DNA from: a virus
Lineage: Duplodnaviria; Heunggongvirae; Uroviricota; Caudoviricetes
Strand: one strand, 5' to 3'
Virus record (IMG/VR): IMGVR_UViG_2671181085_000001
Location: 1-12,073 of that record
Length of the DNA stretch: 12,073 nt
Shown: one piece after another, positions 1 to 3,000 of the stretch
How positions within the stretch are numbered: position 1 is the first letter of the stretch
How the letters are laid out: every line of letters starts with the position of its first letter
Program-made: the position numbers

Positions 1-3000
1 TGGAAGTGAACAGCACAGACACTGCGGTATGATAAAAAAAGCCGCCAGCGACAGGAATAGACGCTGGCGGTGCTAATACCCATGGAAATACAAAAGCAAG
101 ATTCTTTCGTGCAGAGCCTTCTTTTTAATGAAAACACTTCCTGTTGTCAATAATAACGGTAAGAAATTAAAAAACGCCAGTTGCCGTAAGCGACTGGTGG
201 GGGAGCGCCATGGACACTCCGAAGAAATGGTGCAGTGAGTGTTTTTAAATGAAAAATATTCTTATTATCAATATGTGTCAGCGGTATTTGCGGGGTAAAA
301 AAATCCACCAGTAAGCACAGGGAGAAATGCGTCATGCTTCTGGTGGAAATGCAACTGCGGTGAGGTTTTATTGTTATATTGGTAAATTTTCTACACAAAA
401 GCGATTCTTAATGTCAACACGTTTGACAGGGAATTGTTGGGCACTCAGAGTAACTACACGAGGCTGTCAGTGGAGCACTGGCAGCCTTTTTCATGTTGTG
501 AGCTTCCGGATTGCGGGAGGCGGGGTATGTACCAGATGGAAAAAATCACAACAGGTGTGTCATACACCACGTCAGCGGTGGGAACGGGCTACTGGTTCCT
601 GCAGTTGCTGGACAGGGTTTCCCCGTCTCAGTGGGCGGCAATAGGCGTGCTGGGGAGTCTGCTGTTTGGGCTGCTGACATATCTGACGAACCTGTATTTC
701 AAGATTAAAGAAGACCGTCGTAAGGCGGCACGGGGAGAGTAGGTGATGAACCATGAAGAAATGAATCAGCGCTTCAGTCGTCTGGAAAATGAAATTGCTG
801 AACTGAATAAAAAGCTGTCGGTGCTGATGCCTTCTGAAGATGAAAAAAAACGCCGCGATGAGCAGTTTGCTGCGTTTGACGATTATTGTCGGAAAGTGAT
901 GAGCAGAAATCTCGCAGAGTGTTTCAGTATTCATAATGATAATTTCAGTGAGCTGGAATGGGAGTGTAACCGGCCATCCTTTGTTGTATCCGGTGATGAC
1001 GGGAAAATCACCATATCAGAAAATGGAAAAGTAACACTGCCATCGCACCAGCACAGTGAGACGCTCATTGAATTTGCCATTGATTACCTGAAGAACAATA
1101 AAAAACAGGGGCTGATGCAGCGCATTGGTCGTTGCATGGGGTATCTGCAGGTAGCCGCTGAGATTGAAGCGCTGGCCAGTGGTGCGGACAAGGATTCAGT
1201 TGTGCGGGAGGCACTTCTTCGTGATTTTGATAATCCGCCTTTTAAAAAAGTGCCGGCTTACTGGCTTCATCCCGGACTGACTTATCTGAAAGTGCGTATT
1301 TAGTGGGCCTGGGACAGCGGCTGAATATTTAATATATCCATGAACACAAAAATCAAATACGGCCTGTCGGCTGCCGTTCTGGCGCTGATTGCCGCAGGGG
1401 CTTCTGCGCCTGAAATCCTCGACCAGTTTCTGGATGAAAAAGAAGGCAACCACACCACGGCATACCGTGATGGCGCGGGTATCTGGACCATCTGCCGTGG
1501 AGCCACCCGGGTGGATGGTAAGCCTGTTATTCTTGGCATGAAGCTGTCGAAGGGGAAATGCGACCGGGTTAACGCCATTGAGCGTGATAAGGCGCTGGCA
1601 TGGGTGGAGAAAAACATCAAAGTGCCACTGACTGAACCCCAGAAAGCGGGGATCGCGTCATTCTGCCCGTATAACATTGGCCCCGGTAAGTGTTTCCCGT
1701 CGACGTTTTATAAACGAATTAATGCAGGAGATCGAAAAGGTGCCTGCGAAGCGATTCGCTGGTGGATTAAGGACGGTGGCAGGGACTGCCGTATTCGCTC
1801 AAATAACTGTTATGGTCAGGTATCCCGTCGTGACCAGGAGAGCGCGCTGGCGTGCTGGGGAATCGACAGATAAGCAGAATATTTTGCTGATAAATGACGC
1901 TTGCTCACGCGGGCAGATAACACGAAATCCTGCGAACTGGCAAAATGCAAGTGAATAAAGTCAGGAAGATTGTTTTACGCAGAGGCACCGTAATGGTGTC
2001 TTTGTCATTTCTGCGCTTCGCACAAGCGTAAATAAACCAAAGAACCTTTCAGGATGAGCCCTGGTGGATAACCGGCAGTGGTCTGGTTAACCCTCTTTGG
2101 GCTGGTTATTCCTGTGCGCAGGGTTCATCACTAAAAGGAAATAACCGATGAATATGATGACCCTGCCGTTTCACGGCGATTCTCTTTATGTGGTTAACCA
2201 TAATGGCGAACCGTATGTTCCAATGAAACCGATCGTTGAAGGGATGGGGCTGGACTGGAAAACTCAGTATCGCAAGTTAAAACAACGGTTTAATAGCTGC
2301 ATGGTCGAAATGACCATTCAGCTACCAGGTGATACCCAACGTCGCCCTGTTATCTGCCTGGCTTTACGTAAACTTGCTGGCTGGCTTCAGACTATCAGCC
2401 CAAATAAGGTTAAGCTCAAAATCCGAGACAAGGTGATCCAGTATCAGGAAGAGTGCGACGATGTTCTCTATGAATACTGGACGAAGGGTTTTGTCGTTAA
2501 TCCCCGTCGAATGAGTGTGATGGAAGAACTCAATCAGGCTTGTGCTGACATGAAACGGGATAAAAACATTGCCAGTGTGTTTGCTACCGGGCTGAATGAG
2601 TGGAAACAGGTTAAAGCCGCGCATGTATCAAAAATCCGCACATTGATAAACGAAGCGAATCTGCTGATTGATTTTGTCCTGGCTGATACAGGCAAAGGGA
2701 AAATAACAAAGGCGGATTGATGGAGTGGTGGCTAATGATATCGGATAAACTCATAACGCTGGCGAAGATCCTCTGTGTAATCGTCGGCATTCCATTTTTA
2801 GTCATGCTGGTTGCCATTTTCTTTTCCACCGCCTGGCGAGTCCTGACGTTATCGGGACTGGTGGAGTGAAAGAGAGATGAACCGTGTTCTGTGTGTGGTG
2901 ATTATTGTCCTGCTGGTGGCCTGTGGTGCGCTTAGTCTGGGGCTGAATCATTACCGTGATAACGCCATCGCCTACAAAGAGCAGCGCGATAAAGCCACAT

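Follow-up and report, generated by a model that had tools for sequence, protein, structure and literature searches.

The sole experimental lead for the gene family discussed here is YdfR of Escherichia coli K-12, which was reported to bind the N-terminal catalytic half of RNase E by two-hybrid assay and co-purification; the interaction was mapped to YdfR residues 1-72, which constitute the DUF1327 domain, YdfR preparations carried RNA, and over-expression of YdfR hardly altered the transcriptome (PMC13232886, 2026). The cassette of a pinholin and a signal-arrest-release (SAR) endolysin has been described in a genomic survey of 279 Shiga toxin (Stx) phages, where the gene studied here is not discussed, and in the literature on DUF1327, ydfR, Stx-phage lysis cassettes and pinholin accessory genes we found no functional study of it. 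Here we analyse a stretch of 12,073 nucleotides from a tailed phage (Caudoviricetes; positions 1 to 12,073 of IMG/VR record IMGVR_UViG_2671181085_000001), hereafter the window, and in it an open reading frame (ORF) lying in the slot between the holin gene S and the endolysin gene R, which we call the slot gene. We conclude with high confidence that it is a reduced accessory gene of the YdfR family that is still under selection.

Family, modules and conservation of the slot gene

A first-pass annotation of the window had described an intact ORF between pinholin and SAR endolysin, ending 36 bp before the latter and belonging to no recognisable family. The ORF is present as stated (743..1303, + strand, 186 amino acids (aa) counted from the GTG at 743). 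The statement on its family stands for Pfam and NCBIfam, against which the slot protein gave nothing significant, and specifically no match to PF07041 (DUF1327) for 746-1300 even at E<=1, but it does not stand for PHROG 1085 (annotated function unknown), which the slot protein matches with an E value of 1.2e-111 over profile positions 117-296 of 296, leaving the N-terminal third of the profile uncovered. A word-indexed search of 5.8 billion proteins returned 168 matches, every one of which, where a source was named, came from E. coli. The top non-identical group consists of proteins of 287-296 aa that NCBI names 'YdfR family' or 'DUF1327 domain-containing' and that contain the whole slot protein (98% of its length) at 82-90% identity in residues ~105-296, with DUF1327 ahead of it. 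These long relatives match PF07041 with E values of 3.7e-45 and 2e-34. The slot protein is ~100 N-terminal residues shorter: the window form retains the first two codons of the long forms (Met-Asn) and then goes straight to the coiled coil. The slot gene is therefore best described as a DUF1327-less variant of the YdfR-family set.

The family of the slot protein is very small, because an exhaustive HMMER scan of 1.84 billion cluster representatives recovered only 37 clusters at E<=1e-3. Scanning one genome per species gave only 3 loci, all in Escherichia or Shigella, and the distant relatives, in which the C-terminal domain (CTD) is conserved to 33-45% identity, were found in metagenome assemblies on short contigs only. 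Two large adhesins returned by the representative search (P0139, with 13 matched stretches, and P0153, with 6) were rejected as convergent repeat matches to surface repeats with a 'TIGxNGxVT' beta-hairpin motif.

Alignment of the relatives resolved the following modules: DUF1327, a linker, a coiled coil (residues 1-64 of the window protein), an optional insert labelled M4, and the CTD (residues ~79-185). DUF1327 stands alone in K-12 YdfR (103 aa), is joined to the coiled coil in PhiR12_2 (169 aa) and to M4 and the CTD in phage 86 gp05 (268 aa), and precedes both coiled coil and CTD in the 287-296 aa proteins. The coiled coil is followed by the CTD in the window (185 aa), by M4 and the CTD in a form of 213 aa, and by an unrelated C-terminus in Stx2_499. 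In the latter phage and in Stx1_14040 (L200 1096-1797 (-), and the same region of L201), the slot is occupied by this coiled-coil gene, whose unrelated C-terminus overlaps an unannotated antisense ORF of 233 aa with no match in Pfam or PHROG; ~500 bp of that slot are unannotated. On the short contig that carries the distant relative P0126 (L006), two further small proteins (511-1044 and 2883-3116) resemble the N-terminal modules of other members (the N-terminus of P0129 and a DUF1327-like fold), an indication that shuffled modules are grouped together at this locus.

An AlphaFold2 model of the full-length slot protein, built from a 29-sequence alignment and having a mean predicted local distance difference test score (pLDDT) of 83, places helices 3-27 and 31-64 in a hairpin, in support of the N-terminal coiled coil proposed in the first-pass annotation. 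A disordered link (61-69) follows, and the remainder is modelled as a compact domain of three short strands (79-97, a beta meander) and four helices; modelled alone, the CTD reached a pLDDT of 91 and a predicted template modelling score of 0.83. Foldseek against BFVD returned nothing under an E value of 0.09, sequence-profile searches of the PDB, one using the full alignment and one that of the CTD, returned only coiled-coil noise (E>=0.03), and the modelled CTD appears to be an orphan fold within these two libraries. Across the 29 sequences, G128, R129, L134, Q135, A137, P165, K167, W173, P176 and Y180 are invariant, and F79 and H103 nearly so. The protein is acidic and hydrophilic (isoelectric point 5.8, grand average of hydropathy -0.61), with no transmembrane segment, SAR segment, signal peptide or hydrophobic stretch. 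It matched no defence system in PADLOC-DB 2.0, where the sole match among its relatives was insignificant (P0033 to PbeC, E 0.018), and none of the lysis families in Pfam, NCBIfam or the PHROG 'lysis' category.

Selection was estimated by the Nei-Gojobori method on alleles of the 185-codon form taken from IMG/VR loci and annotated collections. The set comprised 20 distinct nucleotide alleles (18 proteins) with the frame kept. The ratio of non-synonymous to synonymous substitution rates (dN/dS) was 0.25 for the whole slot gene and 0.21 for the CTD, compared with 0.20 for the adjacent lysozyme and 0.07 for the holin at the same loci; the value of 0.58 for the N-terminal module, obtained on ~500 summed differences, comes from too few differences to be informative. 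Because all 20 alleles keep the frame at such ratios, the slot gene is a real gene under purifying selection, at a level like that of the lysozyme beside it, and the loss of frame among homologues that had been named as evidence against a translated ORF was not what we observed. Antisense and alternative-frame genes under 743-1303 were also considered and rejected, since there are merely short unconserved ORFs and the substitution pattern fits the + frame.

These observations bear on the possibility that the slot gene is a decaying remnant, in which an internal deletion removed DUF1327 and the leftover ORF is carried without function. Such a history would agree with the ~100 residues by which it falls short of the long forms and with the mapping of the family's only experimentally characterised activity, RNase E binding, to the domain that is gone; truncated and frameshifted alleles also exist, and some RefSeq genomes leave the slot region unannotated. 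However, the dN/dS of the CTD equals that of the adjacent essential lysozyme, and after deduplication the short arrangement of holin, coiled coil, CTD and lysozyme is the commonest architecture (35 distinct loci; the 296-aa form has 22). The short form has furthermore retained its own start codon and Shine-Dalgarno context, and its CTD is held to the distant identities given above with ten invariant residues. We therefore regard decay without function as very unlikely. As to where alleles are broken, those of L035 and L070 are frameshifted at a run of eight A residues, and those of L053, L055 and L056 near window position 812; these frameshifts could be real slippage or sequencing error, at homopolymers in the case of the run.

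Occupancy of the holin-endolysin junction

The ORF had been presented as an unusual wedge in an otherwise adjacent S-R pair. We found instead that the slot is commonly filled and polymorphic. Of 5426 complete E. coli genomes, 786 contain DNA coding for the CTD, with 969 such places among them, and 185 stretches in IMG/VR encode a relative. Synteny was checked for the best 80 of these 185 loci, and in all 80 the flanks that the contig includes place the CTD gene between an S21-type holin and lysozyme. The slot gene is flanked by an S21-type holin and a SAR lysozyme in over 100 distinct loci, and the slot of the K-12 Qin prophage is filled likewise (essQ-ydfR-rrrQ). On the other hand, S and R are adjacent in many closely related phages, among them POCJ13, Ss-VASD, P13374 and the O104:H4 phage group, which share 94-97% identity with the window in the flanks, and several of the phages with adjacent S and R are isolated and plaque-forming.

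Because closely related functional phages have S and R adjacent, the slot gene is not needed for lysis, and a core lysis role is unlikely. It is optional cargo in a polymorphic slot, neither a lysis component nor a one-off insertion. The holin-endolysin junction of S21-type cassettes is accordingly a cargo hotspot for a small family of shuffled modules, of which the window copy is an ordinary member; cargo in the late region is unsurprising for lambdoid phages.

The signals around the slot gene point to expression together with its neighbours. The holin stop TAG occupies 740-742, and the GTG at 743 is the very next base. The ATG at 746, 3 nt past the holin stop, is the likelier start (185 aa): RefSeq calls it (WP_001385817.1, 185 aa, 'hypothetical protein'), and the Shine-Dalgarno sequence GGGGAGAG within the final holin codons has the right spacing for it. 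In POCJ13, where the slot is empty, GGGGAGAG and a start 5 nt past the holin stop belong to the lysozyme gene (compare L199 850-866). The gene next after S thus inherits the GGGGAGAG initiation site; this gene is the slot gene in the window and the lysozyme gene in phages whose slot is empty. With the slot filled, the lysozyme gene begins in a different context, TAATATATCC-ATG, with no evident Shine-Dalgarno sequence, and the N-terminal residues of the lysozyme differ. Since no promoter-like or terminator-like site was found from 489 to 2163 on the + strand, the slot gene is most simply taken to be co-transcribed with S and R, and the earlier placement of the gene in the late lysis transcript fits.

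Such an arrangement raises the question of whether the slot protein could be a cytoplasmic regulator of lysis timing that, by analogy with T4 RIII, a soluble protein binding the cytoplasmic part of a holin, would attach to the charged tail at the C-terminus of the S21 pinholin or antiholin and so shift the moment of triggering and of Stx release. With a start so close to the holin stop and a Shine-Dalgarno sequence inside the holin gene, the protein should be made in step with the holin; its position exactly between S21-type holin and SAR lysozyme is kept in the more than 100 loci mentioned, and the module still adjoins a lysis cassette in a divergent locus (L198). The slot protein is moreover acidic and the holin tail basic. 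Yet the gene is absent from closely related functional phages, the L198 module lies upstream of an unrelated holin, and the 3.1-kb contig L006 shows no lysis gene. The protein has neither a membrane segment nor similarity to any lysis-category PHROG, and the domain of the long relatives is reported to bind RNase E, not holin. We consider this role improbable. Of the functions suggested in the first-pass annotation, namely lysis timing, defence or anti-defence, and host interaction, none was directly supported by the analysis.

A convergent gene beside the C-terminal domain

In phage 86, in Stx2_12E129 and in three distant metagenome loci whose CTDs are 40-42% identical, the CTD gene is adjoined by a convergent gene of ~105 aa. 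The encoded proteins are mutually homologous (26-77% identity) and match PHROG 1853 (annotated function unknown). Searching IMG/VR with a PHROG 1853 protein, we found a convergent, adjacent CTD gene in 46 of 46 loci, with gaps of ~10-45 bp between the two genes. PHROG 1853 DNA is present in 96 E. coli genomes (133 places), as compared with the 786 genomes and 969 places of the CTD. The two proteins were also considered as paralogues, a relationship rejected after hhalign of their profiles showed none. Neither protein matched anything in Pfam or the PDB, and no consensus promoter was found for the PHROG 1853 gene.

The pair is not confined to the slot. In a divergent phage (L198 2000-4200), a frameshifted DUF1327-CTD gene and its PHROG 1853 partner precede a holin of another kind, 101 aa long, and a HicA/HicB-like pair adjoins them. 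Because this pair is outside the S-R slot and the L006 contig carries the pair with no visible lysis gene, the CTD gene and the PHROG 1853 gene move as a unit. In the window, a ~420-bp segment holding the PHROG 1853 gene and its upstream hairpin is absent between slot gene and lysozyme. The 36-bp spacer that stands there aligns weakly to the 3' end of the PHROG 1853 gene, which suggests that the partner was secondarily lost.

Two genes tied in this way could form a phage-versus-phage or defence pair, the PHROG 1853 product being a toxin or exclusion factor expressed in the lysogen and the CTD protein a late antidote, so that the window would carry an orphan antidote against co-resident prophages. 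The PHROG 1853 gene was never seen without an adjacent CTD gene, and the CTD gene is often alone, an asymmetry expected of toxin and antidote; the pair persists where CTD identity has fallen to 40% and also away from the S-R slot, the spacer alignment points to secondary loss, arms-race genes typically show shuffled modules and presence/absence polymorphism, and Shiga toxin-producing E. coli (STEC) genomes contain up to 15 related lysis regions. However, no member of the family matches PADLOC and the database searches of both proteins were empty, the PHROG 1853 gene shows no consensus promoter, convergent orientation is unusual among protein toxin-antitoxin pairs, and the adjacent partner is not present in the window. 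We judge an antidote function unlikely. Combining both ideas, the CTD and PHROG 1853 genes may constitute a previously undescribed two-gene module for toxin/antidote, exclusion or lysis control, whose orphan copy in the window, made in step with the pinholin, would neutralise factors of co-resident prophages or tune lysis. This is a speculative proposal to which we give little credence; if true, the window copy could adjust lysis timing and, with it, Shiga toxin release.

Proposed role, genomic setting and comparison with known systems

As the best explanation of the whole we somewhat favour a reduced YdfR-family accessory gene that acts as a protein-binding factor. The slot gene is very probably a translated accessory ('moron') gene of an Stx2-converting lambdoid prophage, expressed from the Q-dependent late transcript with pinholin and SAR endolysin, which has kept the coiled-coil module and the CTD and has lost DUF1327 and the convergent PHROG 1853 partner. 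Its product would be a soluble cytoplasmic protein-binding factor and probably no enzyme. It would form oligomers through the helical hairpin and bind a partner through the CTD, the partner being the PHROG 1853 product at loci that encode one and elsewhere a protein of the host or of a co-resident prophage; the protein would act in the final minutes of the lytic cycle. We suggest binding because the CTD is the only module to which another gene is strictly tied, because the modules are shuffled like interaction domains, and because nothing resembles an enzyme, the two-domain model having no match to a catalytic family. The non-enzymatic adaptor mechanism taken by itself is tentative, and we hold it with much less confidence than the family assignment.

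Several observations weigh against protein binding by a functional accessory gene. The allele is truncated or frameshifted in about 10% of the distinct loci, and the slot gene is therefore dispensable in many prophages. The CTD gene is alone in ~86% of its genomic places (969, against 133 for PHROG 1853), and because it mostly stands alone, the PHROG 1853 product cannot be its usual target; the strict linkage of the two could reflect common descent in a very narrow family and not physical interaction. Finally, with H103, R129, K167, W173 and Y180 invariant or nearly so, the CTD may have an enzymatic or nucleic-acid-binding role.

The window belongs to the late region of an Stx2 prophage (Table 1). 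The Stx2-converting lambdoid prophage of E. coli strain 89-3156 and 3 other STEC genomes are 100% identical to it over 1.4 kb, and the gene order in 89-3156 is stx2A/B, an IraM-like gene on the opposite strand, a SASA/NanS-p esterase gene and then the region under study. The hairpin ahead of the holin falls inside the late operon, which is Q-antiterminated, and polymerase modified by Q presumably reads through it. The holin gene has the dual-start motif Met1-Tyr-Gln-Met4 (ATG 527 and ATG 536). A second cargo slot of the cassette lies between endolysin and Rz (2148-2869), where the Ant-like gene overlaps a hydrophobic ORF of 49-50 aa. The Rha-family gene is followed by further small genes and then by terminase and head genes. 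According to RefSeq, the portal gene (window ~10832 to the end; L004 22333-24917) carries a frameshift in the genome of origin, so that the prophage may be defective. An Rfam scan of the window gave no match.

Table 1. Positions of features in the window and of PHROG 1853 genes in other loci
Feature	Sequence	Position	Strand	Remarks
Esterase gene, 3' end	Window	start of window		
Terminator-like hairpin	Window	460..488	+	13-bp stem then T run; ~40 bp upstream of holin start
S21-type class II holin (pinholin)	Window	527..742	+	PF04971, E 6e-33; RefSeq 'class II holin family protein'
Shine-Dalgarno GGGGAGAG	Window	732..739	+	within final holin codons
Slot gene	Window	746..1303	+	185 aa + stop
Slot-gene N-terminal module	Window	746..937	+	residues 1-64; predicted antiparallel helical hairpin / coiled coil
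A8 homopolymer run	Window	843..850	+	inside slot gene
Slot-gene CTD	Window	980..1300	+	residues 79-185
Spacer	Window	1304..1339	no strand	36 bp, between slot-gene stop and endolysin ATG 1340
SAR-type phage lysozyme R	Window	1340..1873	+	PF00959, E 5e-24
Ant-like gene	Window	2148..2720	+	P22_AR_N + ORF11CD3; between R and Rz
Rz i-spanin	Window	2877..3314	+	PF03245
Rz1 lipoprotein ORF	Window	within 3046-3261		embedded in Rz, +1 frame
Rha-family gene	Window	3517-4059		after Rz; ORF11CD3 domain as in Ant-like gene
PHROG 1853 gene	L001	3588-3902	-	
PHROG 1853 gene	L002	3154-3468	-	
PHROG 1853 gene	L006	2378-2713	-	
PHROG 1853 gene	L007	585-902	-	
PHROG 1853 gene	L008	436-759	-	
PHROG 1853 gene	L153-L198			

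The slot gene shares the late transcript with stx2 and the lysis genes in pathogenic E. coli prophages, and any effect on lysis timing, phage yield or prophage competition would matter for toxin release and for how Stx phages spread. Its sequence was already in RefSeq, and the family was catalogued as PHROG 1085 and, for the long forms, as the YdfR family. New are the DUF1327-less and partner-less variant, the CTD as an unrecognised domain without known fold, and the strict linkage of this domain to PHROG 1853.

Among described systems the nearest is the YdfR/DUF1327 family itself, represented by YdfR of K-12 Qin and gp05 of phage 86, which the slot protein resembles in position, in its match to PHROG 1085 and in its 82-90% identity to the long members. 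It differs in that the slot protein has no DUF1327, the domain that defines the family, and K-12 YdfR has neither coiled coil nor CTD. Because the slot protein has no DUF1327, the result on RNase E is not transferable to it. The two-gene form (gp05/gp06 of phage 86; Stx2_12E129) shares a homologous CTD (83% identity) and the same flanking holin and lysozyme, but the window lacks both the ~420-bp partner segment and the M4 insert between coiled coil and CTD.

Two further comparisons concern the possible role of the gene. T4 RIII is a soluble cytoplasmic antiholin cofactor in lysis inhibition and is not encoded inside a lysis cassette. The slot protein is likewise small, helical and cytoplasmic and comes from a phage with holin-controlled lysis, so that a functional analogy is possible; no similarity in sequence or fold was found between the two, however, and nothing here ties the slot gene to lysis timing. 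Morons of the lambdoid late region, of which bor and the Ant-like gene separating R from Rz are examples, are likewise dispensable, lie in or beside the cassette and are polymorphic for presence or absence even in near-identical phages. bor is oppositely oriented and has its own promoter, whereas the slot gene lacks one and depends on translational linkage to the holin.

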